A model generated the notes under the pieces. That model had not been told where the DNA came from, ran no database searches, and saw nothing but the letters and a program-made list of their open reading frames with translations. The translations under genes and the position numbers were made by a program. DNA of 64,000 nucleotides from Phycisphaerae bacterium (GTDB lineage Bacteria > Planctomycetota > Phycisphaerae > UBA1845), in assembly GCA_963666835.2 (NCBI GenBank), contig CAXXGO010000006.1, positions 1 through 64,000 on the forward strand. Reading direction: 5' to 3'. Positions 1 through 48,780 of this stretch are shown here, one piece after another. Numbering within the stretch: the first letter of the stretch is position 1; every line of letters begins with the position of its first letter.

Positions 1-234
1 CAAGTTCGCGTCGACCGGGGAGTCCGCCGCACCAATAGGCCGACAACCCCTCCGACGAGGCGGTTCTACCGGGTCTTACGCAAGCGGCCGCCCGGGTATG
101 TCAGGTTAAACGTATACCCACGATTCCCGGTCTGTGCAACGGATGCGGGCCCCACCGCCTTGGCAGCCTGTCGGAGCTCGTTTGACGGCTCCCCGTGACA
201 AGCCAGAGGCGAAGGCACGGTTTGTAACGGCAGA

Positions 235-1041
235 TCACCCGAGTCGGTGAACGCGGTAAAGGAATGAGTGGATTTGCTCCAGAAGCTCGGGGGCATCGGG
301 TTCGTGAGGTAGAACGTGCCCGGACGACGGGCACTCTACGAGTTCGCATTCGGCGTTGACGGGCCGGCAGGCAACGGCAACGGTCGCCTCCCAGGACGTG
401 TACGGATCCTGTCGGCCACCGGCGACTAGCATCGGCACGGTCAGCTCGGCCAATCTGGAATGAACCGCCGCACCGAGCTTCTGAAGCTGCATGAGAGAAT
501 CCAGCGGATACCGATCGTAGCTGTACAGGCCTTTCACCCGGTGGTTCTCCAAGGACCGGGCGCTCTTTTTTGCATAGGGCTTCACGAAGCGGACGAACGG
601 GATCAGCCACCGCTTCGCACCGGTTAGGTTGAACATCGGAGACAGCATCACAACCGATTCGACACGGGGATCGGTTATCCCCGCGCGGGCGGCCAGCACC
701 GCCCCCATAGAGACCCCGATGATCGCGATCGACCGGCAATGCTCGGCGACCCGGTCGATCTGATCCGCCACCGCATCCGTCCAGTCGACCGCCGTCGTCC
801 GGCGAAGCCGCGCGACCGATGTACCGTGCCCCGGCAACAGCGGAGAGGACAGCGTCAGTTCGGGTTGAACCTGCTCCAGATATGCCGCAATCGGCTCAAC
901 CTCCGTAGGTGAGGCAGTCAAGCCGTGGAGCATAATGACCCCCAACCCGCCGGCATTGCCTTCGCGATACCGCGGAGCCGCCGCCGGCGCGATTGGTTCA
1001 TCACCGCCGCAGTTAACGCCGACCTTGCCCGGTGACATCAT
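235..1041 (-). CDS. Alpha/beta-hydrolase (carboxylesterase / monoacylglycerol lipase-like)
   Basis: HGLTASP oxyanion region, GVSMG nucleophile elbow, GRQDP and SGHVL complete a Ser-Asp-His triad; 4-nt overlap with the upstream kinase gene. Confidence 0.85.
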   Translation of the reverse strand: MMSPGKVGVNCGGDEPIAPAAAPRYREGNAGGLGVIMLHGLTASPTEVEPIAAYLEQVQPELTLSSPLLPGHGTSVARLRRTTAVDWTDAVADQIDRVAEHCRSIAIIGVSMGAVLAARAGITDPRVESVVMLSPMFNLTGAKRWLIPFVRFVKPYAKKSARSLENHRVKGLYSYDRYPLDSLMQLQKLGAAVHSRLAELTVPMLVAGGRQDPYTSWEATVAVACRPVNAECELVECPSSGHVLPHEPDAPELLEQIHSFLYRVHRLG

Positions 1042-2009
1042 CGGCCCTTTGCCGCCTTTGCGAGGCCAGCGGTCTTACCGGAGCTCTTTCCATCTTTCGG
1101 CACAAGCACCCGAAGTGCCCGGCGCGCGACGCTTATATCCACGGGAGTGCCGGCAATGAACTCGCCGTCGGCCCACACTTCCAACTCCTCGTCGGACTCG
1201 ATCCGCAACTGTTTCGTCTGGGTGAAATGCACGAACTCACTCGACGTGTGCCGGCGCATCAAGACCATCGGGAGAATCGAGAACGCCCGCAACTTCGAGA
1301 CCCGATCGATTATGCAGAGATCCAGCAGTCCGTCGGTAGGAACGGCATCGGGGGCTATCTCGATTGCTCCGCCGTATGTCGAAGTATTGGCACTCGATGC
1401 AAGAAACACCGCCTGCTCTATTGTTCCGAATTCAACCGTTATGCGCAAATGGCGCGGGCGATACCGAGCGAGTACCCGCAAAGCCGCGTACACGTAAGCC
1501 AGCGTGCCCTTCAAAGGCATGCGCATCGTATCGACGTAACGCGAGACCTCCGCATCAACGCCCAACGTAGCCACGGTGCAGAAATACCGCCCGTTGACGC
1601 AGCCCAGGTCGATCGGCCGCACCGCTCCGCCGTCCAACACGTCCACAATTGCCTCGACGTCGGTAGACACGCCCAGAGCGCCCGCGAAATCGTTGCAGCG
1701 CCCCACCGGCGCCAGCCCCATCGTCGGACAGGCGTCCCCGAGCGTCTTGCGCAGATCGGCCAGGGCGTTGGCCACCTCCTGCATCGTCCCGTCCCCGCCG
1801 CACCCGACCACGCACGTCACCGAGGAACCGAGGGAGCCGCATGCCGCCCGAACAATCCGCTCAGCATCACCCCTGCCTGCGGTCTCGCTGATCATCGTGT
1901 AAGCGCCGCGTTCCCGCAGGCGGGCGGCGACCGCCACGGCCGTACGCCGCCCTCGCCCCCGCCCCGACGTGGGATTGAAGACAATCAGGAATTCACGGCG
2001 CTTGGCCAT
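1038..2009 (-). CDS. Diacylglycerol/lipid kinase, YegS/BmrU family
   Basis: NPTSG, GGDGT, GxxNDFA, YGG and ADGE motifs. Confidence 0.92.
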   Translation of the reverse strand: MAKRREFLIVFNPTSGRGRGRRTAVAVAARLRERGAYTMISETAGRGDAERIVRAACGSLGSSVTCVVGCGGDGTMQEVANALADLRKTLGDACPTMGLAPVGRCNDFAGALGVSTDVEAIVDVLDGGAVRPIDLGCVNGRYFCTVATLGVDAEVSRYVDTMRMPLKGTLAYVYAALRVLARYRPRHLRITVEFGTIEQAVFLASSANTSTYGGAIEIAPDAVPTDGLLDLCIIDRVSKLRAFSILPMVLMRRHTSSEFVHFTQTKQLRIESDEELEVWADGEFIAGTPVDISVARRALRVLVPKDGKSSGKTAGLAKAAKGR

Positions 2010-2052
2010 TATCCTCTCATCCTGCCACCCGCAATGCCCGGCCTACGGACGA

Positions 2053-3288
2053 TCACCTTTCGTTCACCGCGAAAACAGTCTTGACCGTCTTGCTCCGACC
2101 GGTGTTCAACGCGCCGGCGAACGCTGCCCGGTAATCCGCCAGCTTGAACGGCTCACCGGCCAGCGGCGCGATCTTCGGAGCCCACTCGCGCAACAGATCA
2201 ACGGCCACATCGAAGGTCTCACGGTGCCCCTCGCTCGTTTCCTCCGGTCCGTACGCGTAAGCCGCACACAAGGTCAATTCTTTGAACCATAGCGGCGTCC
2301 AGTCGATCCCTCGAGGCATCCCCGGCATCCCCACCAGTACGAAAGTCCCGCCGGACCTCGTAAAACGGATGCCGTCATCGATAGTAGTCGCCGACGCCGC
2401 ACAATCGAACGTCACCGACGCCCCGCCGACCACCAACGGCTTACCCAGCTCCGGCTTCAGTACTTCCGCATCAAGCGCCTTGGCCCATAGGGCGTAGCGT
2501 TCTCGCACTCCCGGCGGAGACTCCAGCAGTTCGCTCGCCCCCAGCCGCAGAGCATGCTCCTGCTGATGAGCGTGCCGAGCGACGGCCACTATCCGCGCTC
2601 GGCAGCCCGTGGCGCGCAGCGCCGCAATCGTCAACAGCCCGATCGCCCCGCACCCGATTACCAACGCCGTGTCCCGCTCGGTCAGCGAAACTCGCAGGGC
2701 ACCGTGCAGCGCACAGGCAAACGGCTCGGTCAGCACGGCCGCCCGATCCGGAATGTCGTCCGGAATGCGATAGACCTGCGAACGATGGGCCACGAGATTC
2801 GTGCCGAACGCCCCACCGGTATCCCGGCAAAAGCCGGTCTGCAGGCCGGGGGAGACATCCCCGCGAGTCAAGTTCCGGCACAGAGCATCGCGCCCCGCAG
2901 CACACGCGTCGCACAGCGGCTCCAGCCCCCGAGCTCGACAGCCCAGCGCCGGGTGCAACACCACCCGATCGCCGACCGATACGTCCCCCGCGTCAGGCCC
3001 GACTTCCGTAACATGCCCGACCAGTTCATGCCCAAGCACAAAGGGCAGCGACGTCACCGGCGCCAGATACGGAGAGTTCATCGCATACACCGTTGCCAGA
3101 TCCGACCCACAGACACCGGCCAGACGCGGGGCAATCCGAACCCACTGATCAGTGGGCAGAACGGGGTCCGGCATTTTCTTCAAAGTCAGCGGCGGCAGGC
3201 TCCTCCAGCAAGAGCCGCGCGCCCGTCGCCCGAGCAGCTTCAAGGCAAGGTAGCGCGGGATACTCTTGCGGTACTCGAGCGCTATCAT
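2053..3288 (-). CDS. Zn-dependent medium-chain alcohol dehydrogenase
   Basis: GVCGSD, GHE, structural-Zn cysteines (C..CDAC..C), EPxxC and GCGAIG Rossmann motif. Confidence 0.9.
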   Translation of the reverse strand: MIALEYRKSIPRYLALKLLGRRARGSCWRSLPPLTLKKMPDPVLPTDQWVRIAPRLAGVCGSDLATVYAMNSPYLAPVTSLPFVLGHELVGHVTEVGPDAGDVSVGDRVVLHPALGCRARGLEPLCDACAAGRDALCRNLTRGDVSPGLQTGFCRDTGGAFGTNLVAHRSQVYRIPDDIPDRAAVLTEPFACALHGALRVSLTERDTALVIGCGAIGLLTIAALRATGCRARIVAVARHAHQQEHALRLGASELLESPPGVRERYALWAKALDAEVLKPELGKPLVVGGASVTFDCAASATTIDDGIRFTRSGGTFVLVGMPGMPRGIDWTPLWFKELTLCAAYAYGPEETSEGHRETFDVAVDLLREWAPKIAPLAGEPFKLADYRAAFAGALNTGRSKTVKTVFAVNER

Positions 3289-4001
3289 CGATCATGCCCC
3301 TCCGCAGTCGTCGCCACCGTCCATCGATGCACCGGCCAGCCACGGGACCGTGCAGTGGCTGCCAGAGCGTTGTCAGGATTAACCGCATGGGGGAACCCTA
3401 CACACTCGAGCATGGGCAGATCGGCAATGCTGTCACCGTAGGCGTGCGACTGCGCCAAGTCGATCCCGTGTTCCGCCGCAAACTGTCGAATGCGCCGGGC
3501 CTTCTCTTCGTCTCCGATCGGCGGGCCGTCCAGCGACCCGGTGAACCGACCGTCGCTTTCCAGCAGAGCCGGGGCCAACACATGGGTGACGCCCAGGACC
3601 CGCGCCAGCGGCGCGATAATGAAGTCAATCGATCCGGTCACCAGAACGACATCGCATCCCGAATCGCGGTGCTCCTGCAAGCAGGCCTCGGCCTCCAAGA
3701 ACCGGCGGGGCCGGATCACGTCGCGGTAACAGTCCTCGGCCTGGCTCTTCACATCGGCTGCCGACAGACCGCGATAGCTGCGGTAGAACACGATGTTGAG
3801 CCGACTGCGGTTGATCTTGTCCAAGACCAGGTACAGCACGCACTTGAGCATGAAGGCGACGTGCCAGAGCCTTCCGACCAGCCGGGACATCCGGCGGCGG
3901 CGGAAATAGTCATAGTAATGCACAATCGTAGTGTGAATGAGCGTGCCGTCTACATCGAAAAAGGCGGCGGCCTTTTCCGCGGGCGCGGCGATGTCGGTCA
4001 T
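3285..4001 (-). CDS. HAD subfamily IB hydrolase (SerB-like; candidate lipid phosphatase)
   Basis: FFDVDGT motif I, VTGS motif II, AYGDSIADL motif IV; ATG at 4001 overlaps the upstream stop (ATGA). Confidence 0.9.
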   Translation of the reverse strand: MTDIAAPAEKAAAFFDVDGTLIHTTIVHYYDYFRRRRMSRLVGRLWHVAFMLKCVLYLVLDKINRSRLNIVFYRSYRGLSAADVKSQAEDCYRDVIRPRRFLEAEACLQEHRDSGCDVVLVTGSIDFIIAPLARVLGVTHVLAPALLESDGRFTGSLDGPPIGDEEKARRIRQFAAEHGIDLAQSHAYGDSIADLPMLECVGFPHAVNPDNALAATARSRGWPVHRWTVATTAEGHDR

Positions 4002-7000
4002 AATGACACCGCCTCGGCACAAAGGGCGGCCACCGACTTCTCGACCTTCTCCGTCAGTTCGCGGAACGCTGCGTAATGGTCGGCGCCGGCGCCGAGCTTA
4101 GGAGGATGGATCGGCGCGCCGAAAAACACCGTCGCCCGCCCGGGGCGTACGAATCGCTGCCCCTTACGGAACAGGCTGTATGTATTGTGGATATAGACCG
4201 GGATGATCGGCACATTCCGCTCGATCGCCAGGACCGCAACTCCGATCTTGAAGGGCTGCAAAGCCCCGTCCAGAGAGCGCGTGCCCTCGGGGAACATGAG
4301 CACCCCTTCGCCGCGGCCCAGAGCGTCTCCACACCGCTTGAGCCCGCGAATGCCGTCCGCCTGACGGTCGAAGGCGATCGTATCGAACACCCTGCCGAAG
4401 ATGAACCGCTTGAGCCGCGTATTGAAGAAGTAGTCCTCGGCTCCCGCTACCCAGATTCGTCGCCGCCCGGCCACCGCCGTCAGCACCGAAGGAGAATCGA
4501 GGTGTGAAGAGTGGTTGGGCGCTACGACAAAACCGCCTTTTTCCGGGATATTTTCGCGATTCACAGCATGCACCCGAACATAGGTGTTCATGAACACCCC
4601 GACGCCGCCGCGCATGAGAAAGCGAATCGGCAACAGCGAAGCCGAGACCTTCCCGTTAAGCCCGGCTGCCGCTTCGCCCGATTCACTCAGGCGCCGTTGC
4701 CAGGCGGACTCGTCGCGGCGCGCCGCGGCCACCGGCTTGCGCTCGCCGATCAGATTGAACAGGTCTTGGACCCGATTCACCTTGGCCGCCGCTTCGTCTC
4801 CGATATGCATGCGGAAACGGGCCTCGACCACGCCCAACAGGTCCATCTTACCGATACTGTCGATCCCCAAATCCAACAGCAAGTGCATGTGCGGCTTGAC
4901 CGACTCTGCGGGCCGGCGACATTGAGCGGCGATCACGTCGCGAACCACCGCGGCGGCCTCCGTGTTCGACCGGGTCGCTTCGAACGAGACGCCTTCCGCC
5001 TGTTCCGCTGCCAGCAACCGCAGGCGCTTATCAGACGCGGATGGCTCTTCCGCCACCACGGTTTCGCGAATCAGATTGCGCTTGGCCTTAAGCGTCGAGG
5101 TCTTGGGCAACTCCCGGTCCCAGAAGTGTAAAACGGCTATGCGTTGATAGGGCGGCAGCGTCTCGGAGATCGACTCGACCGCAACGCGAACCTCGCGCTC
5201 CGCAGACGAAGGGTCGAGATCCGGGTGTCCCGCACAATCGAGGACCACCACGGCATGCACCGCGTCCCCCAAGCCGTCGGCCGAGGGCATCCCGAATACG
5301 CATACCTCGCTGACATACGGCAGATCGCGATAGCGCGTCTCCACCTCGTCGGGATATACGTTCTTGCCCGCCCCGGTGATGATAAGGTCCTTAGATCGCC
5401 CGGTCAGATATAAATACCCGTCTGCGTCCACCCGCCCGAGGTCCCCAGTTCGGAACCAGCCATCGACGAGTACCGCCCGCGTCGCCTCCGGACTGTCCAG
5501 ATAGCCCGACATCACACTGGGTCCGCGAGCCCAGACCTCACCGACGCCTTCTGCGTTGGGATTGCGGATCTCGAGTTCGACGTTCGGCAGCGCCGGTCCC
5601 ACCGACGACGCCCGCCCCGCCCCGGGCGGGTTAACCGCAAGCACCGGCGCCGTCTCGGTCAACCCGTAACCTTCATAAACCGGAAACCCCAGCCGGGCGA
5701 AGGAACCGAACAGTTCCGGATCGAGTCGGGCACCGCCTGAAACGAACAGGCGCAGCCGACCCCCGAACTCCCGATGAACCATGCCGAACAACCGGCGGGC
5801 ATAGCGATGCCCGGTCAAATCGGACAACATCCCCAGCAGCCGGAAAGCCCCGCGCTTCACCACCCCTCCCGCTGCCACGGACTTGGCAATCGAGTCGTGG
5901 AACATGCGAATCAATCGCGGCACGACCAACATGACCGTGGTGCCGGTGGCCTGCATCGCCCCGCGAATCTCCGGCCCTTTCAGATGCTCGACGTAGGTAA
6001 TCGTCGAACCTGCGGCTAACGGCACCAGGAACCCCCCGGTGAACTCGAAAGCGTGATACATCGGCAGAACCGACAGAAACTCGTCCGACGAGTAGACCGG
6101 GTGGACCTGCAATAACGCCGCCGCGTTGGCGATGAAATTGCGGTGGGTCAACTGGACCGCCTTGGGCGCCACCGTCGTTCCCGAGGTAAACAGTATAGAT
6201 GCCAAAGCCTTGTCATCCGCACGCACCGGATCGGGCAAGGCGTCCCGTGACGCCGCCGGCGGCGGAACGAACGGCTGGGCCATCACGACAATCTCAGGAT
6301 CCCCCGCGGCCCGCGCCGAGGTCAAACCGTCCTGGGTCGTCGATCCCGCCAACACCAGGCGGGCTCCGGCGAATCGGACCGCCCCCCATACGTCCGCCGG
6401 GGGCAGTTGCGGGTCGAGCGGCACGGCCGTCAGCCCCGCGCGCATGGCCGCCAAGTACGTTAAGCCCCATTCCGGTGAACTCTCGCCGCAGATTGCCACC
6501 CGATCGCCCGGCGCAAGCCCGCGCTCCGTGAAGCGTCGCATCAGCGTACCGGTCGCGCGCAGAGCCTCATCATAAGTGTACCGCACCCAGCGGTTCCCGC
6601 GCCGAATCTGAAGGGCGTGCTTCTCGGGAAAACGCTCTGCGGAATGCCGAAAGATCTCGAAAAGACTCCCGCTCTTGCGCACGTCCCGGGCCAGCGTCTC
6701 CTCGACTTCCTCCAGCTTGCCGACCGCTCGAATCCGGGCCGACGGCTCCCACCCCGTACCCAAGACGAAGGAACGCACCCCTGGCACGTGGCGGTTGACG
6801 ATATAGTCATCCCAATCCACCACACTCACATCAAAAGGGAACTCCTTGCGGTCGTCGGGATGGAGCCGTTCCGCGATCGCGATCAGGTGATCGTCGGCAA
6901 ACCGGCACTGCAGATGAGTGTACGGCGAGTAGATCTCCGCAAAGTAGATGAGCTGCTCGATCTGCCGGGCGGCACCGGCCAGTTTGCGTGCACGCCGCCT

Positions 7001-8257
7001 GGCGGTGTGAAACCGCTCAAAGAATCGCCGCAAGGACCGCACGCGCCGATGGCGCTGGCGCCAGCGCCTCACAAACGTGTCCGAGTCCATCAACTTGAGC
7101 GGCCGCACCGGGATCGGCTTGCCGTCATCGGAGATCATCGGGCGCTTCTGGAAGGCCCGCTTAACCGCGCGGCAGATCCTCGCAACGGTCGCCGGATGTC
7201 GATAGCTCGAAGCGCAATGGTAGACCGTGGGACGTTCCGCACATCCGTCCTCAACCGCCAGGGTCGCAACCATGGCATTGGCGACGAAATCCACCGGGAT
7301 CAGATCGAGAGGGATGTCCGGTAAACCGGGAAACTCGGTCAGCTTCCCGCGCCCGTAAGCCACGATAATCGGGTCGGCCATGCGCAACCCGTCGATCCAG
7401 CCGGGGGCCGGCTCATCGTAGCTGCCCTCGATGATGGCGGGGCGGAACACCTTGCAGGGGACATCCGCACAATCGCGAATAAGAAGCTGCTCGCCCAGCC
7501 ACTTTGTGAACGTGTAGGTGTCATTCCAACCGTAGGACCGCGCCCGCTGCATTCCAACATTGATCAGCTCAGTCCGACAGGCTTCGGTATCGGCACCGAG
7601 CTTCTCGCATACCGCTCGGGCTTCGGCCTGGAGCGAATCGACCAGCGCATCGAGGTCGAACTCGCCGTCGGCCTTGCGGGGCAGCTTGCCCTGAGCACCC
7701 GCCGGAGCGCTGAAGTCCTCATAGACGGTGTCGTCGCGCACTCCACACACGAAGCAGGTGGACACGTGCATCATCGGCACGTTGCCGCACGCCCGCGCGA
7801 AGGACATCAACCGGGAAGGACCTAACGTGTTCAATCCCACCGCCAGATCCAAGCGTTCGTCGAAGGTCACCGTCGCGGCACTGTTCACCACGAGCGTTAT
7901 CTTGCGGCTGAGATCATCATAGGCCTGCTCGCTGAGCCCCAACCGCGACTCGGTCAGGTCGCCGCCCACCACATGGAGCTTCTCATCGCAAAGGCGCTGA
8001 AACCGATCCCCCATCGTCGCCCGGAGACGATCGAACGCCGGAGATCCGAGCACCTCACGTTCGACTCGCTCCCGCGGCGATCTCCCCCCGGCCCGAGGGC
8101 GCACCAGCAGATGAATCCCCCCGATCGTCTCGACGCTGCGCAGCAGCTTCTCAATGAAAGCCTTGGCCAGAAAGCCCGTGGCCCCCGTTACCAGAATATG
8201 CTGCCCCGCAAGCGACTCGCTAATACGCGGCGTAGAGGAAGTCGTCTCGGAGTTCAC
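3998..8257 (-). CDS. Multidomain fatty acyl-CoA reductase / acyl-CoA synthetase / ACP / acyltransferase (ElbD-like architecture)
   Basis: In order: TGATGFLA and YTFTK (FAR-type SDR); FTSGTTxxPK, YGLTE and WFRTGDLG (adenylation); LGIDS (carrier Ser); NHSSHLD and FPEGTRS (PlsC-type acyltransferase). Confidence 0.92.
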   Translation of the reverse strand: MNSETTSSTPRISESLAGQHILVTGATGFLAKAFIEKLLRSVETIGGIHLLVRPRAGGRSPRERVEREVLGSPAFDRLRATMGDRFQRLCDEKLHVVGGDLTESRLGLSEQAYDDLSRKITLVVNSAATVTFDERLDLAVGLNTLGPSRLMSFARACGNVPMMHVSTCFVCGVRDDTVYEDFSAPAGAQGKLPRKADGEFDLDALVDSLQAEARAVCEKLGADTEACRTELINVGMQRARSYGWNDTYTFTKWLGEQLLIRDCADVPCKVFRPAIIEGSYDEPAPGWIDGLRMADPIIVAYGRGKLTEFPGLPDIPLDLIPVDFVANAMVATLAVEDGCAERPTVYHCASSYRHPATVARICRAVKRAFQKRPMISDDGKPIPVRPLKLMDSDTFVRRWRQRHRRVRSLRRFFERFHTARRRARKLAGAARQIEQLIYFAEIYSPYTHLQCRFADDHLIAIAERLHPDDRKEFPFDVSVVDWDDYIVNRHVPGVRSFVLGTGWEPSARIRAVGKLEEVEETLARDVRKSGSLFEIFRHSAERFPEKHALQIRRGNRWVRYTYDEALRATGTLMRRFTERGLAPGDRVAICGESSPEWGLTYLAAMRAGLTAVPLDPQLPPADVWGAVRFAGARLVLAGSTTQDGLTSARAAGDPEIVVMAQPFVPPPAASRDALPDPVRADDKALASILFTSGTTVAPKAVQLTHRNFIANAAALLQVHPVYSSDEFLSVLPMYHAFEFTGGFLVPLAAGSTITYVEHLKGPEIRGAMQATGTTVMLVVPRLIRMFHDSIAKSVAAGGVVKRGAFRLLGMLSDLTGHRYARRLFGMVHREFGGRLRLFVSGGARLDPELFGSFARLGFPVYEGYGLTETAPVLAVNPPGAGRASSVGPALPNVELEIRNPNAEGVGEVWARGPSVMSGYLDSPEATRAVLVDGWFRTGDLGRVDADGYLYLTGRSKDLIITGAGKNVYPDEVETRYRDLPYVSEVCVFGMPSADGLGDAVHAVVVLDCAGHPDLDPSSAEREVRVAVESISETLPPYQRIAVLHFWDRELPKTSTLKAKRNLIRETVVAEEPSASDKRLRLLAAEQAEGVSFEATRSNTEAAAVVRDVIAAQCRRPAESVKPHMHLLLDLGIDSIGKMDLLGVVEARFRMHIGDEAAAKVNRVQDLFNLIGERKPVAAARRDESAWQRRLSESGEAAAGLNGKVSASLLPIRFLMRGGVGVFMNTYVRVHAVNRENIPEKGGFVVAPNHSSHLDSPSVLTAVAGRRRIWVAGAEDYFFNTRLKRFIFGRVFDTIAFDRQADGIRGLKRCGDALGRGEGVLMFPEGTRSLDGALQPFKIGVAVLAIERNVPIIPVYIHNTYSLFRKGQRFVRPGRATVFFGAPIHPPKLGAGADHYAAFRELTEKVEKSVAALCAEAVSL

Positions 8258-8258
8258 T

Positions 8259-9017
8259 TTACGTCCCTTCCACGAAGGTCGTCGTGGTTTCGTCCGGGCA
8301 GGCCGCTCGAGCAGAGGACTCCAGCCCCGCGGATACGGCCGCCCGCAAGCGGTCGTGAAGTTCGGTGGACGCCATCGCCGCCGCTTCGTCCGCCGAAATC
8401 GGTTTGTTGAACGTCACCCGCACCGGACCGGGACGTACTCTAAACACGCCGCGTCGATGTACGGCCCGCGACCCGGAAATCGAAAACGCCACCACGTCCT
8501 GTCCCGCACGCTGGCATATCTTCATCGCACCCCTGCGAAATGGCAACAAGCCGCCGGTGGGACTGCGCGTTCCCTCCGGAAATACTACCACGGAGGACGG
8601 GGTACGCCGCAGATTCTCTATCATGTTGTCTACAGCCTCCAGCGCGACCCGAGTCCGCGAGCGATTGATCGGAATGTGCCCGAAATCCCTGATTACCCGG
8701 CCAAAAAAAGGTATCCGGAATAGGCTGTCTTTCGCCATAAAGCAGACCCGCTTCGGTAGCGTGGCGCATAAGATCGGAATATCGAGGGCACTCTGGTGGT
8801 TGCCCACGAAGAATAGCGACTTGTCGACGGAGAGGTGCTCGGCGCCCGCCACCGTCAAACGTACCCCTGCCACCGCCACGATAATGCGACCCCACGTCCT
8901 CATACACCACTGCCGCAAACCCGGCGCATCGAAGAAAAAGCCCAGCACGAGCCAGGGCACCCCCAGGATCGCAACCCCCAGTGCGGCTGCCAAAGTTGTC
9001 AACAACGCGCGAGTCAC
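8259..9017 (-). CDS. plsC: 1-acyl-sn-glycerol-3-phosphate acyltransferase
   Basis: NHQSALD (HX4D) and FPEGTRS motifs, N-terminal hydrophobic helix. Confidence 0.9.
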   Translation of the reverse strand: MTRALLTTLAAALGVAILGVPWLVLGFFFDAPGLRQWCMRTWGRIIVAVAGVRLTVAGAEHLSVDKSLFFVGNHQSALDIPILCATLPKRVCFMAKDSLFRIPFFGRVIRDFGHIPINRSRTRVALEAVDNMIENLRRTPSSVVVFPEGTRSPTGGLLPFRRGAMKICQRAGQDVVAFSISGSRAVHRRGVFRVRPGPVRVTFNKPISADEAAAMASTELHDRLRAAVSAGLESSARAACPDETTTTFVEGT

Positions 9018-9176
9018 CCTGTTTCGGACGTCCTAATGCCCATTCCCCAAACCCGACCATGCCTACGGTCCTCCATGCCACGATGGTCAGGCCACAGAAC
9101 AGAGGTGTCAAGCACTAGCAGATGTGCGCCGCCCCGGTGGTAAACCGGACGACGCCGTCATAACATAGAAGTAACG

Positions 9177-10808
9177 ATGCCGATCCTTCTGCGTAATGTG
9201 GTCCTTCAACTCGACGAGCCGGAAGACGTATTGGCACGACTCGTAGCGAGGAAGCTCCGCGTCCCAGAGACCGCGATCCGCAGCTTCGCCGTTACGCGGC
9301 GCGCGCTCGACGCTCGGAAGAAGAGAATCTCCTTCTCCTATCACATTGAGGTGGCACTTGAGGGGTCGGAACAGTCCCAACGTGCGCTCCTGAAGCGGAT
9401 GCGCCCGGGGGCGGCAATCTGGATTGAACCGGAAACAGATGCCGCCCTGGAGCCGGGGAACACGCCGTTGCCGGGCAGGCCGCATGTTATCGGGTTCGGA
9501 CCGGCCGGGATGTTCGCGGCGCTGCGTCTGGCCCAGCTCGGCTACCGGCCGGTCGTCGTCGAACGCGGTCGAGACGTGGAACGCCGAAGGCGGGACATCA
9601 CCGAACGCTTCTTTGAACGGGGCGATTTCGACCCCTCATCCAACCTGCTATTCGGTGAAGGCGGGGCGGGTACGTACAGCGACGGGAAGCTCTACACTCG
9701 CATCAACAACCCCCACTGCCGCCACGTGATCGAGACCCTCTACCAACACGGCGCCCCTCCCGAAATACTCGTCGACGCACGCCCGCATATCGGTAGCGAT
9801 CTACTGCCCCAGGTTTGCGCCAACGTCCGCCGGAGGATCGAGAAACTCGGGGGCGAGGTCCGCTTCGAGAGCCGGCTGGACGGTATTCGCCCGGGTGTTT
9901 CGCCGGAGACCCATCGAGGATCACGCCTGACGGCCATCAGGATCAACGAGCAGTGGCACGAGGCCGGACCCACGATCCTCGCCGTCGGTCACTCGGCGAG
10001 AGACACGATCCGCATGCTGGCGAGCCAGGGCGTAACGGTCGAGCCCAAGCCATTCCAGATCGGAGTGCGGATCGAACATCCGCAGGTGATGGTGGACCGT
10101 TGGCAATACGGCAAGGCCGCCGGGCACCCGCGGCTCGGACCGGCCGAGTACAACATGGTGGCGAAGGACGCCGGCGGAGAATTCGGCAACGTATTCAGCT
10201 TCTGCATGTGCCCCGGTGGGCGGATCCTCCCGGCCAACGAGTCGCCCGGGTTGATCGTCACCAACGGGGCCAGCAACTCGCGACGATCCGGACCGCTCGC
10301 CAACAGCGGATTCGTTATAACCGTCGACCCGGCCAGGATGGGAATGACCGCCGCGGACGGTTTCGCGTTCCAGGAACGATGGGAGCGGAAGGCCTACGAC
10401 CTGACCGAAGGCACATATCAGGTTCCGGCTCAACGAATCTGCGACTTCCTTGATAAGAAGGGTTCAGATGGGGCCCTGAACATCAGCCATCCGATCGGTG
10501 GCCGATGGGCCGACCTCCGCGCCGCCATGCCCGACGTCGTAATCTCTGCCATGGAGCAGGCGTTGCCGATGTTCGGCGCTCGATTCCCAGGGTTTTGCGG
10601 AAGCGAGGGAATCATGGTGGCACCGGAGACGCGGGCCAGCAGCCCCGTCCGCATCGTGCGCGATCACGTAACCCGCGAGTCTGCATCCATCGCCGGCCTG
10701 TTCCCGGTGGGCGAGGGGGCCGGGTACGCGGGCGGAATCGTCAGTAGCGCCGTCGACGGCCTGAAATCGGCGGACGAGATCATCCGCCGATACGCCCCAC
10801 CCGCGTAG
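9177..10808 (+). CDS. Uncharacterised FAD-dependent oxidoreductase (COG2509-like)
   Basis: IGFGPAG, GEGGAGTYSDGKL, FSFCMCPGG and GEGAGYAGGIVSSAVDG family motifs. Confidence 0.88.
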   Translation: MPILLRNVVLQLDEPEDVLARLVARKLRVPETAIRSFAVTRRALDARKKRISFSYHIEVALEGSEQSQRALLKRMRPGAAIWIEPETDAALEPGNTPLPGRPHVIGFGPAGMFAALRLAQLGYRPVVVERGRDVERRRRDITERFFERGDFDPSSNLLFGEGGAGTYSDGKLYTRINNPHCRHVIETLYQHGAPPEILVDARPHIGSDLLPQVCANVRRRIEKLGGEVRFESRLDGIRPGVSPETHRGSRLTAIRINEQWHEAGPTILAVGHSARDTIRMLASQGVTVEPKPFQIGVRIEHPQVMVDRWQYGKAAGHPRLGPAEYNMVAKDAGGEFGNVFSFCMCPGGRILPANESPGLIVTNGASNSRRSGPLANSGFVITVDPARMGMTAADGFAFQERWERKAYDLTEGTYQVPAQRICDFLDKKGSDGALNISHPIGGRWADLRAAMPDVVISAMEQALPMFGARFPGFCGSEGIMVAPETRASSPVRIVRDHVTRESASIAGLFPVGEGAGYAGGIVSSAVDGLKSADEIIRRYAPPA

Positions 10809-13564: not shown

Positions 13565-14719
13565 ATGGCCGAATCGCAACGGCAAGAGTTGATGGGCAGC
13601 GGAATGGACGTCAGCCGACCAGCGGACGATACCGTGCATCTGCGGCTGTACGGAAGCTGGAAGATGCACGCCGGGTTACCGCCGTCCGCTGATGTGCTCG
13701 AACTACTGACGACCGACCCCGCGATTCGGCGTCTCACGTTCGATACAACGGGGCTGACCGGCTGGGACTCCGGCTTGCTGACCTTCCTACTGCGGATCCT
13801 CGACTACTGCACCGACCACAACCTCGAGGCGGATCGATCCGGTTTGCCGGACGGGGTCCGGCGCCTGCTGACTCTGGCTTCGGCGGTACCGGAAAAGACC
13901 GACACTAGGCAGACAACGAAACGCCCGTCACTCGTCGCGCGATTGGGTGAACAGGCCCTCAACGTGGGCACCGCCGCCGCGGATATGCTCCGCTTTCTTG
14001 GTGAATCCGCCCTTGCGGGCGCGGCGCTGGTGCGCGGCAGGGCGCGGTTTCGCCAGTGTGATTTCGCCCTGACGGTCCAGGAGTGTGGAGCCCAGGCCCT
14101 GGGTATCGTTTCCCTGATAAGTTTCTTGATCGGTCTGATCCTCGCTTTCGTCGGAGCAATCCAACTGCAGCAGTTCGGGGCCCAGATCTATGTGGCGGAT
14201 CTTGTGGGAATCGGCATGGCCCGCGAAATGGGTGCCATGATGACGGCAATAATCATGGCCGGGCGTACAGGCGCGGCCTTCGCCGCCCAGCTCGGCACGA
14301 TGACCGTCAACGAGGAAGTCGATGCCCTCAGGACGCTGGGGATTTCGCCGATGGAGTTTCTGGTCTTGCCGCGGATGTCAGCCCTGGCGTTGATGATGCC
14401 ACTTCTATGTCTCTACGCCGACCTGGTCGGCATGCTGGGCGGATTGGTCGTTGGAACCGGGATGCTCGATCTGTCTTTCACACAGTACGTCAACGAAACC
14501 ATCGCGGCCGTGAGCCTGGCGGATATCGTGGTCGGAGTGTCTAAGAGCGTGGTGTTCGGCATTCTGGTAGCTCTCTCGGGCTGCCTGCGCGGGATGCAGT
14601 GCGGGCGCAGTTCGGCCGCGGTCGGCATTGCCGCCACCTCGGCCGTGGTGACGGCCATCGTATTGATTATCATGACCGATGCGGTATTCGCCGTCGTGAC
14701 GAACGAGATCGGAGTCTAG
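13565..14719 (+). CDS. mlaE: MlaE-family ABC permease with N-terminal STAS-like domain
   Basis: REMGAMMTAIIMAGRTGAAFAAQLGTMTVNEEVDAL signature; WDSGL STAS-like N-terminus. Confidence 0.92.
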   Translation: MAESQRQELMGSGMDVSRPADDTVHLRLYGSWKMHAGLPPSADVLELLTTDPAIRRLTFDTTGLTGWDSGLLTFLLRILDYCTDHNLEADRSGLPDGVRRLLTLASAVPEKTDTRQTTKRPSLVARLGEQALNVGTAAADMLRFLGESALAGAALVRGRARFRQCDFALTVQECGAQALGIVSLISFLIGLILAFVGAIQLQQFGAQIYVADLVGIGMAREMGAMMTAIIMAGRTGAAFAAQLGTMTVNEEVDALRTLGISPMEFLVLPRMSALALMMPLLCLYADLVGMLGGLVVGTGMLDLSFTQYVNETIAAVSLADIVVGVSKSVVFGILVALSGCLRGMQCGRSSAAVGIAATSAVVTAIVLIIMTDAVFAVVTNEIGV

Positions 14720-14743
14720 CGCCGAGATGGGTATGGACGAGCT

Positions 14744-15802
14744 ATGAGCAGGAAAGCAAACCCGACGGTTATTGGCGGATTCATCCTCGGCGCCGTAGCT
14801 CTGGGCGTTGCCGGAGTGATCTACTTCGGCAGCGGGCAGTTCATGGCGAAGACCAGCAGCTTCGTTCTTTACTTCGACGGCTCGCTGGCCGGGCTCTCCG
14901 CCGGAGCGCCCGTGAACTTCCGCGGGTTCAAGATCGGCACGGTGACTGATATCGTGGTCCGCTATGACCGGCGAGATCACAGCGTACGGGTCCCGGTGTA
15001 TATCGAGATCGACTCGAGCCGCATCGAAGAGGTGCGCGGCGGGTATCAGCCGGACGATCCGCGGGAGATTGTCGATGCGATGGTCGAGCGGGGGCTGCGC
15101 GCCGAGCTCGTCCTGCAGAGCCTGGTAACCGGGCAGATGGCCGTACAGTTCGACTTCCACAAAGATGCGCCCATCAACCTGACCGGGGCGGACCCTACTC
15201 ATGTTGAGCTTCCCACCATTCCCAACTCCATCGAGGAGCTGACCAAGACGATTGCGAATCTGCCTATCGATGAACTCACCGCGGAACTTCGCAGCGTGGT
15301 CCAGGGGATCGACCAGCTCGTTCACTCTGAAGAAGCGCAAAACGCGATCCGTTCTCTTAACCAGACCCTCAAGGATTACGGGGAGTTGGCCCGCCATTTG
15401 GACAGCAAAGTCGATCCGATCTCGCAGAATATTGAGACCAACGTCACCGCTGCGGTCGACGCCGTCCAGCAGGTGGCCGACTCGATCACCGCGGCCGAGG
15501 TCGCTTTGTGCGAGACCCTCGACGATGCACGGAAACTGATCCGGAACGTGGACGGTCAGGTCGAACCGGCGGTGGCGAGCTTCGAGGCCGCCGCGGAGGC
15601 GGCGCGGAGTTCACTCAACCGAGCGGAGGAGCTGCTCAAAACGGCGAACGAGGTGATCGGTCGGGACTCCGAGCTGCACTACAAGCTCACCGCGGCCCTT
15701 GAGGAGCTTTCAGATGCCGCCCGTTCGATCCGGTCTCTGGCGGACTATCTTGAACAGCATCCGGAAGCCTTGCTCCAAGGCAAGCGGGGCATGGGAGGAT
15801 AA
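14744..15802 (+). CDS. mlaD: MlaD/MCE-domain protein (PqiB-like)
   Basis: N-terminal TM helix, GLSAGAPVNFRGFKIGTV, coiled coil, C-terminal YLEQHPEALLQG. Confidence 0.9.
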   Translation: MSRKANPTVIGGFILGAVALGVAGVIYFGSGQFMAKTSSFVLYFDGSLAGLSAGAPVNFRGFKIGTVTDIVVRYDRRDHSVRVPVYIEIDSSRIEEVRGGYQPDDPREIVDAMVERGLRAELVLQSLVTGQMAVQFDFHKDAPINLTGADPTHVELPTIPNSIEELTKTIANLPIDELTAELRSVVQGIDQLVHSEEAQNAIRSLNQTLKDYGELARHLDSKVDPISQNIETNVTAAVDAVQQVADSITAAEVALCETLDDARKLIRNVDGQVEPAVASFEAAAEAARSSLNRAEELLKTANEVIGRDSELHYKLTAALEELSDAARSIRSLADYLEQHPEALLQGKRGMGG

Positions 15803-16410
15803 TGATGCAGACACTCTTGTTAAGAACGATCGCTCTTGGTGCCATTATGGTGGCTCTTGGTGGCTGTGCCCGGTCTGAAAACGCGCGGTTCTATACGCTG
15901 CAGAGCACGGCGACACCGACGGTCGGGGAAGCGGCTACCGGCTCGAAACAGATCACGGTGGTCGTCGGGCCGATAGAGATCCCGGAGTATCTCGATCGCC
16001 CGCAGATCGTCACCCGCAGCGGTTCCCACCGACTTACACTCGCCGAGTTCGATCGGTGGGCCGAGCCGGTGAAGCAGCGGTTTCCCCGGGTTCTGGCGGA
16101 GAATCTCGCCGTTCTTTTGGCCACCGATCGCGTGGTGGTGGCTCCCTGGCAAAGCGCGGCCTCGCTGGACTACCGGGTGGCCGTAGACGTGATCCGCTTT
16201 GAAGGCGCGCCGGGCGGCGAGGTGGAACTGGTGGCCCGCTGGATGGTCTTGGGCTCGGAAGGGGACGAGATTGCCCCGATGAAAAAGTCGAGCCTTGTCG
16301 TTAGAGCAAACTCCCCCGGCTACGACGGCTTAGCCGCGGCAATGAGCCAAGCCATTGCAGACCTAAGCCGCCACATAGCCGCGGCGATCAGAACGGCGAA
16401 GTGCAGATAA
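15802..16410 (+). CDS. pqiC: PqiC-family lipoprotein
   Basis: LGGC lipobox, IPEYLDRPQIV and RWAEP motifs. Confidence 0.9.
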   Translation: MMQTLLLRTIALGAIMVALGGCARSENARFYTLQSTATPTVGEAATGSKQITVVVGPIEIPEYLDRPQIVTRSGSHRLTLAEFDRWAEPVKQRFPRVLAENLAVLLATDRVVVAPWQSAASLDYRVAVDVIRFEGAPGGEVELVARWMVLGSEGDEIAPMKKSSLVVRANSPGYDGLAAAMSQAIADLSRHIAAAIRTAKCR

Positions 16411-17968: not shown

Positions 17969-18247
17969 CAACGCCGCTAACCATGTCAGCCCGCCGTGCG
18001 GCTAACCGTCCCGAAGAAATGCAGGCATTCGGCCCCCGGGGGGGCGTCTCGTTGTTCGGCACATCTCTGCCCAACGAGTGAAGCGTATCCGTCCGACTCC
18101 GCGGCGCCGTATTCCTCAACCTGACAAGCCGCAGGCCGGCTCGGTCCTCAGGCTGGAGGACGAAACGCTCTTGGCGTACTCGAACGAAACGCAGTCTGCA
18201 CATCAGAGAGAACTCTCTCGCCTCGTCTTCCAAGGTTACTACGATTG
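17969..18247 (+). mobile_element. MITE copy B (more degenerate)
   Basis: CAACGCCGCTAACCATGTCAG ... CCAAGGTTACTACGATTG; shares CACATCAGAGAGAACTCTCTCGCCTCG with copy A. Confidence 0.65.
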
Positions 18248-19558
18248 GGCGAAGTCCGACCTGCTTCGCCAGGTATTCCCGTCCAATACCGCGTTCCCGG
18301 GCGGCGGGGCATTCATACACGGTGAGGCATTCCCGCCCGGTGGCGTGCAGCCTTCTTCGCCGGGACTTGCCAGAGCCGAGAGATCCCAAAATACAAACTT
18401 AGCGCCATGCGCCTTCCCGCTCGGCCCGTCCGCCTTTGTAACTGACGCAACCACCGTGTTGCCGGTGGGCGAAACCGTAATCCGATGCGGCTGCCCCGGA
18501 AGAACATCAGCAGGGAAGGCCAGGTCGGCGAGCCAAGCGCCATCGCGCATACTTGCGACACTAATGCGGAACCTCGAGCCTCTCGGCGCGTTGCGATCGA
18601 TCATCAAGCTGAAGATGCGGTCAAAGTTGCAGTCGTACACAGGGTAATCGCGCAGCCAACCCGGCGGACCGCCAACAAGCACAGTCGTCTCGGTGCCCGT
18701 TCGGAAATCCCACGTCGTGCGATTCACCATAAACACTTGGCCGTCTTCGCTGACCCAGCACGGCCTCCCGGCATATGACACCGAGAGCGTACGCGCGGGC
18801 TCGCAGGGCGGAGTGACGTCGTGCAGCGTCATGCCGTGCGAAGGTTGGTTCCATTTTGGACGAGTCCATTCGAGAAGCATACTCTCGGCGCCCGGGATGA
18901 TGAGGAAGTCGCGACGGTCCTCTCGCCCGGAAGGCTGCCCGATATCGACGCGGACCGTAATCTCCCCGCTTTCGAGATCCAGGCCAACCACTTCCGTGTG
19001 TCCTACAGCTTCGTCCGTCTCCTGTCGGAAAAAGGCTGTTCGTCGGTCAGAAGAGAATCCTATGATGCGCGGCCGGTCCGCGCCATCGGCACTCACCGAG
19101 AAGCTGACCCTTCTTACAACCTCACCGGACATCGCGTTGATGACGACGAATTCGTGGGGAGGGGAACAGACGATGATCAACGCATCGCCATCACGCGTCA
19201 ACGTAGCCAAGCGATTCTTTCTACCGCAATCGGCCAAGAGCGTCCACACTACCTTGCCCGTCAACACATCGACTGCCAGGATTCTGTCGGTGAAGCGTCG
19301 GGAGGGGCAGTCGTCGGTGCGCTTTGCAGCCTCATTGGCAATCCGAGACTCGACAAAGAGCGTTGCTCCATCCCTTGAGAATAACGGAGTTTGCGTATAC
19401 GTGTACTTTCCCAGGTCTAAGGTACGGCACGGCAGAATCGCAGACCGAACGGGTCCCAACGAACCTCTGAGGGTGTTCGGTTCCGCCGCGATGCCGGTGT
19501 GCGAGAGGGTGACGACGAGCAATATCAGGGCCTTCGGTTTGCCTATCGTAAACATCAT
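18239..19558 (-). CDS. Secreted hypothetical protein, probable beta-propeller
   Basis: Signal peptide; repeated blade-like motifs FSRDG, DVLTGKVVW, FSSDRR, LDLESGE, VSEDG, VSPTG; stop codon lies in the MITE B end. Confidence 0.65.
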   Translation of the reverse strand: MMFTIGKPKALILLVVTLSHTGIAAEPNTLRGSLGPVRSAILPCRTLDLGKYTYTQTPLFSRDGATLFVESRIANEAAKRTDDCPSRRFTDRILAVDVLTGKVVWTLLADCGRKNRLATLTRDGDALIIVCSPPHEFVVINAMSGEVVRRVSFSVSADGADRPRIIGFSSDRRTAFFRQETDEAVGHTEVVGLDLESGEITVRVDIGQPSGREDRRDFLIIPGAESMLLEWTRPKWNQPSHGMTLHDVTPPCEPARTLSVSYAGRPCWVSEDGQVFMVNRTTWDFRTGTETTVLVGGPPGWLRDYPVYDCNFDRIFSLMIDRNAPRGSRFRISVASMRDGAWLADLAFPADVLPGQPHRITVSPTGNTVVASVTKADGPSGKAHGAKFVFWDLSALASPGEEGCTPPGGNASPCMNAPPPGNAVLDGNTWRSRSDFAQS

Positions 19559-24472: not shown

Positions 24473-26320
24473 GGGCCTGTCGGTTTAGTCGCAGCAGACG
24501 GAGTATGGGTGAGCGATCTCCGTGCGGCTCGCGCTGTTGCACGGCTACGTTCTCCTCATCCAATCCGTGTCATCGTGGGCGTCCCTGGCAGATCAGACTC
24601 CCTATCTTCCCTAATAGAACGGTTTTTCCTGCGCGCAAGCCTTTTTAGGCCTCTTACATGGCTTTCACCCGACCCTCGGCGCGCAGAGCTCCCACTATCG
24701 CTATCAGTTTCTTTATGTTGAAGGCTGTGCATGCCCATAACCACTCGGTTCGGACCTTGTCCAATCCACGTAGCAGAAACTGCCGAAGCCCCATTGCATG
24801 CTTGATGACTGCGTTGGGAGTCTCCGCCAGATGCGCCCGCCGTGCGTAGTCCTTCTTACCGGATGCCGTCTTCAGCCGCGCCGCAACCTTCTGGCGAAGC
24901 GGTTCATGTTGATCATGTGAAACCGTTCGCCGCTTGCACTTGCCGGATAGACAATCTTCCGCCAGCCTGCAACCCTCACATGACAAACACCGATAGACCC
25001 GGTATTCCGAATCGGCGCCGTTCTCACGACCCTTCGTCTTGACTTGATCAAACGTCAGCCGGCGACCCTGTGGGCAGTAATAGCAGTCTTCTTCCCGCTG
25101 ATAAACGAAGGCGGCGCGGTCCAGCTTTCCCGTCTGACGACGACGAGGAAGCTTAGCCCAGTCCGCCTCCGGCACCGGGGTACTCGGGTCCGAACGTTCC
25201 GCCGGATTGTCATCCGGCAACCGCGAAGTCCCCGTAGGCATCAAAGGTTCAATCCCGCGATCCACCAACGCCGAGAGGTTGCCACCTGTGCCGAACGTCG
25301 AATCTGCCACCAACTGCTCGGGTTTCTGACCAAAAGCGGATTCAATACGCTCGGCCGTGGGGATTACGGCCTCCGCTTCGTTAATCTCGTTGAGCACGTC
25401 CCCATCTACGATCATCCCGCACTCATCATCCGCAGCGGCTACCGGATTGTAATTCGGACCATAGCCGCCTTCTTTGTTGGGCATGATCGTCGAATCCGGA
25501 TCGGCCACCGGAACCTTGGCCTTACGTTTCGAAGTGTTTTGGGACTTGCTATGCTTGGCGTCGATCTTCTTCGCAGCCTCCAAGGCCTTATGAAGTTGTT
25601 TCTGACGCTTCTTCAGATCGCCCAACTCCGACGGCAGGGTGTTGACCGAAACGCTGTCGCCAAACAGATCCTTCTCGCGACGATCTATCTGATCCGCCTC
25701 GGCCAGCAACTTATCGATCTGTTCGTCCAGAACACGTAATCGTTCTTCAAGCGTCTTGGCAGTGGCCGTCGCGTGTGGACTGCTATTCGCTTTAACCCGA
25801 GTCCCGTCCAACGCCACCTGATTCAGGCGTATCAATCCCATTTGCATAGCCACGCGGCCGATCTGTCGGAACAGATCCTTCAGTTCTCGTTTGAACCTCG
25901 TGCGGAAATCACAGAATGTCGAATGGTCGATGATCCGTCCTTCCGTCAGCCACATGAAGTCAACAGCGTTACCACACGCCCACTCCAGACGCCGACTCGA
26001 TCGAATCTTGTTGGTCAGACCGTATAGAATCGCCCCGGCCACGATCTTGGGGTGAATCGGCGGCTGCCCCACCACCAGAACGTAATGTTGTTCCCAGCTT
26101 GCCCAATCCAGTCCATCGAGGATTTCCATCAAGAGCCGCACCGAGTGATTCTCGGGGATGCGGTCTCCCAACGTCTCGGGAATCAGGAGTATTTGGTCTC
26201 TGGGCAGCGGGGCTCGGTTCCATCTGCTCATGCTCGTTGCCTCCCTGCGACGCCTCTCTTCCTGACGCTCGGCCACGAACACCTGCCATCAAGAACCATG
26301 CCAATTAAATCGACAGGCCC
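24473..26320 (-). mobile_element. IS1182-family insertion sequence
   Basis: TIRs GGGCCTGTCGGTTTA / TAAATCGACAGGCCC (1 mismatch) enclosing a single transposase; flanks TAAA / TGAA. Confidence 0.85.
24654..26231 (-). CDS. IS1182-family transposase
   Basis: GQPPIHPK, IRSSRRLE, DHSTFCDFR, LDGTRVKAN, DPDS, ADS, YYCPQG, ETPNAVIK, FLLRGLDKV. Confidence 0.93.
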   Translation of the reverse strand: MSRWNRAPLPRDQILLIPETLGDRIPENHSVRLLMEILDGLDWASWEQHYVLVVGQPPIHPKIVAGAILYGLTNKIRSSRRLEWACGNAVDFMWLTEGRIIDHSTFCDFRTRFKRELKDLFRQIGRVAMQMGLIRLNQVALDGTRVKANSSPHATATAKTLEERLRVLDEQIDKLLAEADQIDRREKDLFGDSVSVNTLPSELGDLKKRQKQLHKALEAAKKIDAKHSKSQNTSKRKAKVPVADPDSTIMPNKEGGYGPNYNPVAAADDECGMIVDGDVLNEINEAEAVIPTAERIESAFGQKPEQLVADSTFGTGGNLSALVDRGIEPLMPTGTSRLPDDNPAERSDPSTPVPEADWAKLPRRRQTGKLDRAAFVYQREEDCYYCPQGRRLTFDQVKTKGRENGADSEYRVYRCLSCEGCRLAEDCLSGKCKRRTVSHDQHEPLRQKVAARLKTASGKKDYARRAHLAETPNAVIKHAMGLRQFLLRGLDKVRTEWLWACTAFNIKKLIAIVGALRAEGRVKAM

Positions 26321-39778: not shown

Positions 39779-39852
39779 GGACCCGATTATGCGCGACCGG
39801 CGGCGCGAGCGCAAGCAAAGCCTGGCGCGAATTTGTCGTGCCGAAGCGGGGC

Positions 39853-39881
39853 TTGACGGTATCGTCAATCAAACGCAATCT
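39853..39881 (+). promoter_or_regulatory. Putative outward-facing promoter in the IS4 end
   Basis: TTGACG-N17-CAATCT pointing at the ORF starting at 39928. Confidence 0.35.
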
Positions 39882-48623: not shown

Positions 48624-48780
48624 CGTATTTCTGTACGATGTTGAATTACCGGTGTTCGTTCCAAACGTTCATGCCCTATGCCGCCTCAAAGGGCCTGGCG
48701 CGAAACGTCCGAATGCTCTCCCAAGGCTCACGCGCTGAGCTGTGGGCGTACGTTTCGATACGATCGTCACCAAAAACATT

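Follow-up and report, generated by a model that had tools for sequence, protein, structure and literature searches.

A LarA-like ElbC protein encoded apart from an elb-type operon: a candidate for the ether-bond step in a Phycisphaerae bacterium

The 64,000 nucleotides that open contig C6 (CAXXGO010000006.1) of a Phycisphaerae bacterium (assembly GCA_963666835.2; genome 6.0 Mb, 92% complete), here called the window, carry at positions 235-9017 a six-gene operon built around a homologue of ElbD, the multifunctional enzyme of the myxobacterial ether-lipid (elb) cluster, of which the locus is a variant. At the site where relatives hold an elbC-type gene this operon has only a short spacer, and a stand-alone ElbC-type homologue of LarA (515 aa, Lar_N) is encoded about 2 Mb away on the plus strand of the same contig (C6:2051996-2053543). 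By a modest preference, we read the operon and the stand-alone ElbC as making 1-O-alkyl glycerolipids, with ElbC taking over the ether-forming role of the flavoenzyme AGPS. The parts of this reading differ in strength: that the product is an ether lipid is probable, that ElbC forms the ether bond is an even proposition, and the exact order of steps set out below is doubtful. The case for ElbC is that nearly every relative with the operon also has an ElbC, and that in another planctomycete family it alternates with AGPS; it would therefore be a likely maker of the ether bond. A wider proposal, for which the chances are put a little short of even, is that ElbC-type proteins are nickel-pincer ether synthases, a third route beside flavin AGPS and Fe-S Ger/PlsA enzymes, acting on a dephosphorylated glycerol backbone and interchangeable with AGPS and with each other, and that the stand-alone clade has repeatedly replaced the operonic copy in this family.

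In Myxococcus xanthus, disruption of elbD strongly lowers ether lipids (PMC9131029). In the parts of that review drawn on here, ether-bond formation in the ElbD pathway is described as unknown, elbB is listed as a HAD gene, elbA and elbE as genes for short-chain dehydrogenases/reductases (SDRs), and elbC as unknown. Annotation, as given in the portions covered of PMC11980068, makes MXAN_1530 a HAD-IB protein and MXAN_1529, at the elbC position, a lactate racemase-domain protein.

Co-occurrence of ElbC and elbD

The distribution was read from 101 genomes of one planctomycete family (f1), each searched with both ElbC types and with reciprocal searches, a genome counting as elbD-positive when its best E was at most 1e-100 (73 genomes). 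A Lar_N protein of 530 aa stands behind the Zn-dependent dehydrogenase (ADH) gene in 24 of 58 related loci, and the ElbC proteins form two clades, operonic (O) and stand-alone (S), that are 35-43% identical to each other. The O type is found in 45 genomes, the S type in 27, both in none and neither in 29. elbD and ElbC occur together in 71 genomes, elbD alone in two, ElbC alone in one, and neither in 27; 71 of the 73 elbD genomes hold exactly one ElbC-type copy, and 27 of the 28 elbD-less genomes hold none. The discordant cases are metagenome-assembled genomes (MAGs): G008 (72% complete) and G013 (89%) have elbD without ElbC, and G026 (81%) has ElbC without elbD. Because the genomes are kin, these counts are not independent events.

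The O gene lies no more than 3 kb behind the ADH gene in 44 of the 45 O genomes. In O-type genomes the gap between the ADH gene and the following lipid kinase (DAGK) gene spans 1.6-4.4 kb and contains a LarA-like gene; it measures -3 to 526 nt in 16 other S-type genomes with both flanking genes in view. In the operon described here it is a spacer of 43 nt (2010-2052), which was found to contain no remnant of the O gene; among the 27 S-type genomes, none of the readable operons showed an operonic copy. The stand-alone ElbC of this genome is 35-40% identical to operonic copies.

The core of the operon is equally recurrent. The family has 72 other elbD-bearing genomes, and in the elbD regions of 66 of these the elbD, HAD and ADH genes are contiguous, with five cut by contig ends and one separated, and the gene set is thus not a chance assembly. 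ADH orthologues (53-71% identity) occur in 71 of the 73 elbD genomes but are absent from all 28 others, and a YegS kinase gene comes next in most family elbD loci. Of the six genes described in an earlier, sequence-only reading of this DNA, two are less constant: plsC immediately precedes elbD in only 37 of the 64 relatives whose upstream sequence extends to 1 kb or more, and the esterase gene is optional, occurring in nine of the 101 genomes, all elbD-bearing, and adjoining the kinase gene in six.

An ADH paralogue at 34-40% identity is present in 23 of the 28 elbD-less genomes; at the threshold used, G013 is the only elbD genome to carry it (L357-L374). It was considered as a sign of an alternative AGPS operon and set aside, its neighbours being unrelated and varying in 18 family loci.

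ElbC and AGPS

No AGPS was found in this genome or in any of the 101 family genomes by a query that is positive in other genomes, and a search for the DUF2229 domain of the Ger/PlsA type, with a positive control, gave nothing in this genome. Alternation appears in a phylum sample of 300 other planctomycete genomes, in which FAR-bearing ElbD (FAR, fatty acyl reductase) was scored on two candidates per genome. Fifteen genomes carry such an ElbD, and ElbC occurs in 11, all among those 15. The other four (G152, G218, G291 and G320) have canonical or distant LarA matches only, but a true AGPS: that of G320 matches 2UUU at E 1e-146, and those of the others are 78-80% identical to the G320 protein. 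An SDR-like gene stands in front of AGPS in three of the four. Within family f52, four elbD genomes are ElbC-only and four AGPS-only, with both states inside genus g210; the ElbC-only genomes are elbD-bearing relatives of those four AGPS carriers and have no AGPS orthologue.

Several AGPS candidates were discarded: a FAD-oxidase match in G013, a weak match in G301 that belongs to a different paralogue, and a 528-aa gene in an operon of genus g54. The latter operon (L282, G096:C45; L283, G099:C46), in a genus with neither elbD nor ElbC, is another lipid operon; it encodes a HAD-FAR fusion, a FAR/SDR-like protein, a polysaccharide-pyruvyl-transferase-like protein, two acyl ligases, an enoyl-CoA hydratase, a YegS kinase and PlsC, and carries no AGPS and no LarA. 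In two planctomycetes lacking an elbD match (L381 in G298, L382 in G352), AGPS lies directly behind a PlsC-type acyltransferase gene. L337 (G107) and L338 (G115) encode FAR-less ligase-ACP-acyltransferase proteins (ACP, acyl carrier protein) of 860-900 aa, and no ElbC match was found in G107, G115 or five more genomes with similar match spans.

Exchange of the two ElbC types

The S/O label was mapped on an ElbD tree of 66 rows, from which seven genomes with pieces shorter than 900 aa were left out; it needs 14 changes, 12 of them forced by starred branches. The closest view of such a change is given by G036 (S) and G033 (O), whose ElbD proteins are 96% identical and whose ElbC proteins are 36% identical. 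G036 (L246, about 9227-9400) shows, against G033, a clean 1.4-kb internal deletion of an operonic elbC-type gene with both ends kept, which shows loss of the O gene where the S gene is present. Such a remnant was found in G036 only. The correlation between ElbD and ElbC identities is 0.78 among O pairs and 0.48 among S pairs. When four clades of the ElbD tree were tested on the S tree by the approximately unbiased (AU) test, one was rejected (p-AU 2e-5) and three were not (0.20-0.53); a pairing of G007 with G015 did not hold. As judged from these trees, horizontal transfer has likely occurred at least once, reciprocal loss from ancestors with both types can explain part of the pattern, and wholesale horizontal spread of the S type is only partly shown. 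The S clade also occurs elsewhere, in full elbD-HAD-ADH-ElbC operons of other bacteria (metagenome contigs L163 and L168), and in 16 of 78 metagenome loci it follows a dehydrogenase of that same family; since it is operonic there, it is likely a working elbC type.

A predicted nickel-pincer cofactor

The closest solved structures to the stand-alone ElbC are the single-histidine LarA enzymes 9Q2U and 9Q3J. Across both types, an alignment of 118 rows, one of them partial, keeps residues D70, H114, K189, H205, Y347, H442 and H445 unchanged in 117-118 rows, and these align with D73, H115, K195, H211, Y307, H398 and H401 of cofactor-loaded LarA_Sp. The anchoring set is therefore present, comprising the cofactor lysine (K189), the nickel histidine (H205), the ribose aspartate (D70) and the first catalytic histidine (H114); the second racemase histidine (His174) is missing and its loop shortened. 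Model NF052592 is the best for the stand-alone protein (E 3.5e-151), at 504 bits against a cut-off of 740, and the operonic ElbC of a relative passes at 776. Genes larB, larC and larE are all present in this genome above cut-off, and M. xanthus has an annotated larE. A group-14 member of the LarA homologues (LarAH) from Frankia was inactive in all seven hydroxy-acid assays.

This genome encodes a second LarA homologue, a 425-aa frame with both catalytic histidine motifs (G000:C5:259097-260374, L090), whose best models are malate racemases, below cut-off. Its larC gene lies directly behind that of a weak AMP-binding paralogue (G000:C6:1434312-1436661).

Architecture of the operon

The operon is real, intact and mostly translationally coupled. 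Its six open reading frames (ORFs) lie on the minus strand, and the end of the operon is 234 nt from the contig end. The first gene, at 8259-9017, encodes a PlsC-type acyltransferase (PF01553; TIGR00530 just over cut-off; NHxxxxD and FPEGTRS intact), an accessory predicted to acylate sn-2. One nucleotide separates it from elbD (3998-8257), whose 1419-aa product has, by Pfam, a FAR at residues 1 to about 500 (NAD_binding_4 and Sterile), an acyl-adenylating domain at about 536-1055 (AMP-binding), an ACP (PP-binding) with S1134 and an acyltransferase domain at about 1229-1356. The HAD-IB phosphatase, counterpart of ElbB, follows at 3285-4001 (TIGR01490 over cut-off), its start best placed at 4001 in an ATGA overlap with the elbD stop, and a second ATGA overlap joins it to the ADH gene (2053-3288). 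The latter encodes a Zn-dependent medium-chain dehydrogenase (ADH_N and ADH_zinc_N), predicted to be an NADPH ketone reductase and a stand-in for the SDR ElbE; its best PDB match is 1E3J, an NADP(H)-dependent ketose reductase (E 1.5e-23). Beyond the 43-nt spacer come a YegS/BmrU-family kinase (1038-2009; DAGK_cat and YegS_C; TIGR00147 over cut-off; GGDGT intact), predicted to re-phosphorylate alkylglycerol, and, after a further ATGA overlap, an optional serine hydrolase of the alpha/beta hydrolase fold (235-1041) that resembles monoacylglycerol lipase, with thermostable enzymes of that kind as its best PDB matches (E 1e-19).

The assembly is supported by a contig that covers 203-9400 with zero differences and is confirmed by a second study's contig spanning 1-8152, which includes the ADH/DAGK junction. 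With the ORF map and the junctions, these contigs bear out the sequence-only reading of six co-oriented, mostly coupled genes; its four-domain order of reductase, ligase, ACP and acyltransferase in one chain agrees with Pfam, and its planctomycete host with the named close homologues, which are MAGs of Phycisphaerae and Planctomycetota. Its view that the catalytic motifs are intact extends to the family, in whose alignments (66 rows for ElbD) FAR Y248/K252 is kept in 65 of 65, the ACP serine S1134 in 63 of 63, acyltransferase H1249/D1254 in 61 of 61, the HAD DxD in 70 of 70 and the ADH zinc ligands in 64 of 64. The nearest structure to the FAR part is 7EOZ, a fatty acyl reductase from a plant (E 7e-87). 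Promoter and terminator scans gave chance-level hits only. CarF and wax-synthase domains were not found in this genome, by searches whose positive controls were silent too.

Proposed pathway

From the intact motifs, ElbD would adenylate a fatty acid and load its own ACP, the activities shown in vitro for M. xanthus ElbD in the sections covered of PMC9131029, and its FAR domain would reduce the acyl-ACP to a fatty alcohol. The acyltransferase domain would acylate C1 of glycerol-3-phosphate or dihydroxyacetone phosphate (DHAP), and the HAD protein would remove the phosphate, freeing a terminal CH2OH, for which the plant GPAT4/6/8 acyltransferase-phosphatase enzymes, which yield monoacylglycerol (PMC11127019, as far as covered), offer a precedent. 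ElbC would then swap acyl for alkyl. The chemistry suggested for this swap is speculative, a hidden redox cycle in which hydride passes to the cofactor, the fatty acid is lost through an enediol, the fatty alcohol adds to the resulting enal and hydride returns. The same logic of transient oxidation, elimination and conjugate addition operates in S-adenosylhomocysteine hydrolase. The Zn-dehydrogenase would reduce the C2 ketone with NADPH, the role that an SDR would have in the myxobacterial cluster; the YegS kinase would restore the phosphate and PlsC acylate sn-2, delivering alkyl-acyl phosphatidate into normal phospholipid synthesis. The optional lipase could clear leftover monoacylglycerol while sparing the ether. 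A core phosphatase, an adjoining kinase and an occasional monoacylglycerol lipase together suggest that the pathway passes through free glycerol bearing a single acyl or alkyl chain.

Weighing the readings

A number of observations weigh against this scheme. Co-occurrence suggests that ElbC is needed and does not point to the step that it performs, and in G013, 89% complete in 760 contigs, elbD-HAD-ADH is present but searches found neither ElbC nor AGPS. M. xanthus and families f61 and f25 have ElbC and AGPS-like genes together, so that exclusivity is no general rule; eight related genomes underlie the f52 split, G291 has an elbD broken by a stop, and G291 and G320 are without an ADH orthologue. 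The S-type ElbC of this genome misses the NF052592 cut-off, cofactor loading is a prediction from sequence, and larC is present in 95 of the 101 family genomes whatever their elbD status, so that the cofactor genes do not discriminate. To our knowledge, nothing in nickel-pincer chemistry corresponds directly to the FAD N5 adduct that AGPS forms. In vitro, M. xanthus ElbD gave neither detectable acyltransferase activity nor fatty alcohol, and an elbC mutant is not reported in the parts covered of the same review (PMC9131029). No ether lipids were seen in Pontiella strains that carry elbD homologues, according to the part of the source drawn upon, and the literature covered in part on members of this family yielded one genomic survey, with no biochemistry or lipid analysis turning up.

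The strongest competing account accepts that ether lipids are made and that ElbC is needed, but assigns ElbC a side step, such as epimerising the glycerol backbone or a hydroxy-acyl chain in one direction, or serving as a redox shuttle, leaving another enzyme, for example the ElbD acyltransferase domain, to close the ether. It draws on the racemase and epimerase chemistry of the LarA family, whose single-histidine members are proposed to be one-way epimerases in the parts covered of PMC12611868, and on the genomes in which ElbC and AGPS coexist. We consider it unlikely, given that all four ElbC-less elbD genomes of the phylum sample carry AGPS, as expected of proteins with the same job, and that no other conserved candidate gene appeared next to elbD. 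Less probable again is a cluster making fatty alcohols, wax esters or neutral storage lipids, as the likeness of the FAR to a plant enzyme, the presence of two acyltransferases, a phosphatase and a lipase, and the monoacylglycerol made by the plant acyltransferase-phosphatase pair might suggest; against this, acyltransferases of the PlsC type work on glycerol backbones, wax synthesis would give so tight a dependence on ElbC or AGPS no role, and the sole genetically tested member was needed for ether lipids.

The sequence-only reading rightly saw a variant lipid pathway, but the scheme that it offered contains no ether-forming step and overlooks the conserved elbC-type gene encoded 2 Mb away. 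Its version, in which the six genes suffice and the alkyl bond is the work of the dehydrogenase and ElbD, for instance through the reductive etherification of an aldehyde, accords with an operon that is intact and coupled without elbC, with the aldehyde proposed as the M. xanthus ElbD product (PMC9131029, in the parts covered), and with G013; it is nonetheless improbable, because a stand-alone ElbC is present in all 27 S-type genomes and absent from 27 of the 28 elbD-less ones. With the elbC-type gene missing from the operon, the six genes alone are likely insufficient for product, and expressing them by themselves would likely give a false negative. Lipid recycling of the Aas type, or salvage of exogenous lipid, is the least probable account. 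It would explain an acyl ligase and an acyltransferase in one chain with a kinase, phosphatase and lipase nearby, but scores to Aas-type models fall far below cut-off (NF006386, 208 against 1221 bits), the FAR catalytic residues are invariant, and Aas has its acyltransferase first, with no FAR and no ACP; the rejection of Aas in the sequence-only reading is upheld by that score and by the different domain order. Ether-lipid synthesis with ElbC at the ether-forming step remains the reading that we prefer.

Neighbouring features

No related locus has the divergent FAD-protein gene of 9177-10808 next to its operon. Permease, MlaD-like and lipoprotein genes at 13565-16410 resemble, from their translations only, an Mla-type lipid transport set. 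Two DDE transposase genes lie at 24654-26282 and 38573-39868, and long ORFs with no Pfam match at 18239-19558, 44454-46961, 48742-49866 and 51936-52967 of the window.

Significance

The distribution of ElbC, ElbD and AGPS names a candidate enzyme for the ether-bond step and presents the two ElbC types and AGPS as swappable parts. If the assignment is right, C-O bond formation would be added to the repertoire of a cofactor whose known chemistry is mainly racemisation and hydride transfer, and alkyl ether lipids would be predicted for 71 of 101 genomes, about 70%, in an uncultured Phycisphaerae family. FAR-bearing elbD together with ElbC or AGPS would also be a better marker of producers than elbD matches alone, with a bearing on the sources of environmental ether-lipid biomarkers. 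Should the step assignment be wrong, the locus would be an ordinary elb variant with a history of gene displacement.

Comparison with known systems

ElbD homologues in MAGs of Planctomycetota have been reported (PMC11868695, covered in part), and the accessory set, which had been thought unusual, is mostly known: ElbB is a HAD-IB protein, LarAH group 14 has corresponding neighbours, and sponge symbionts have corresponding DAG kinases and acyltransferases. In the text and Table S1 of Desguin 2020 (PMC7583248), as far as covered, the context of LarAH group 14 (groups 14, 15 and 16 being those relevant to NF052592) comprises PlsC, HAD and a COG1063 Zn-dehydrogenase, 88% associated, and a thioester reductase, 50% associated; group 15 has SDR, HAD and acyl-CoA ligase neighbours, and neither a substrate nor a link to ether lipids is given for the three groups there. 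With COG1063 beside group 14, a Zn-dehydrogenase in place of an SDR has a published context. A literature link between ElbC and nickel-pincer chemistry was absent from titles and abstract openings, a scope outside which most subscription papers fall, including Lorenzen 2014.

LarA_Sp and LarA_Bw (9Q2U, 9Q3K, 9Q3J; PMC12611868, in the parts covered) share with ElbC the cofactor lysine, nickel histidine, ribose aspartate, catalytic histidine and C-domain tyrosine and histidines, but ElbC has an Asn185 loop with four residues fewer, does not keep K76 or H306, and stands in a context of lipid rather than sugar metabolism. The AGPS route (peroxisomal; MXAN_1676) likewise joins a FAR-derived alcohol, an acylated C3 backbone and a ketone reductase; here AGPS is lacking, and the phosphatase-kinase pair suggests a dephosphorylated intermediate. 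The elb-like clusters of sponge symbionts (bioRxiv 10.64898/2026.06.23.733905) combine elbD and elbB cores with DAG kinases and glycerol-3-phosphate acyltransferases in Poribacteria and Acidobacteriota, and the main-text parts covered, figures and supplements aside, name no Zn-dehydrogenase or LarA gene. The nearest counterpart is elbABCDE of M. xanthus (MXAN_1531-1527; PMC9131029 and PMC13012113, both as far as covered), with which the system described here has in common a four-domain ElbD, a HAD-IB ElbB, encoded next to elbD, and a LarA-domain ElbC in the pathway set. It differs in having a Zn-dehydrogenase instead of the SDRs ElbA and ElbE, with no SDR elbE inside the operon, in its extra PlsC, YegS kinase and lipase, in an elbC of a divergent clade that lies outside the operon, and in a genome without AGPS.

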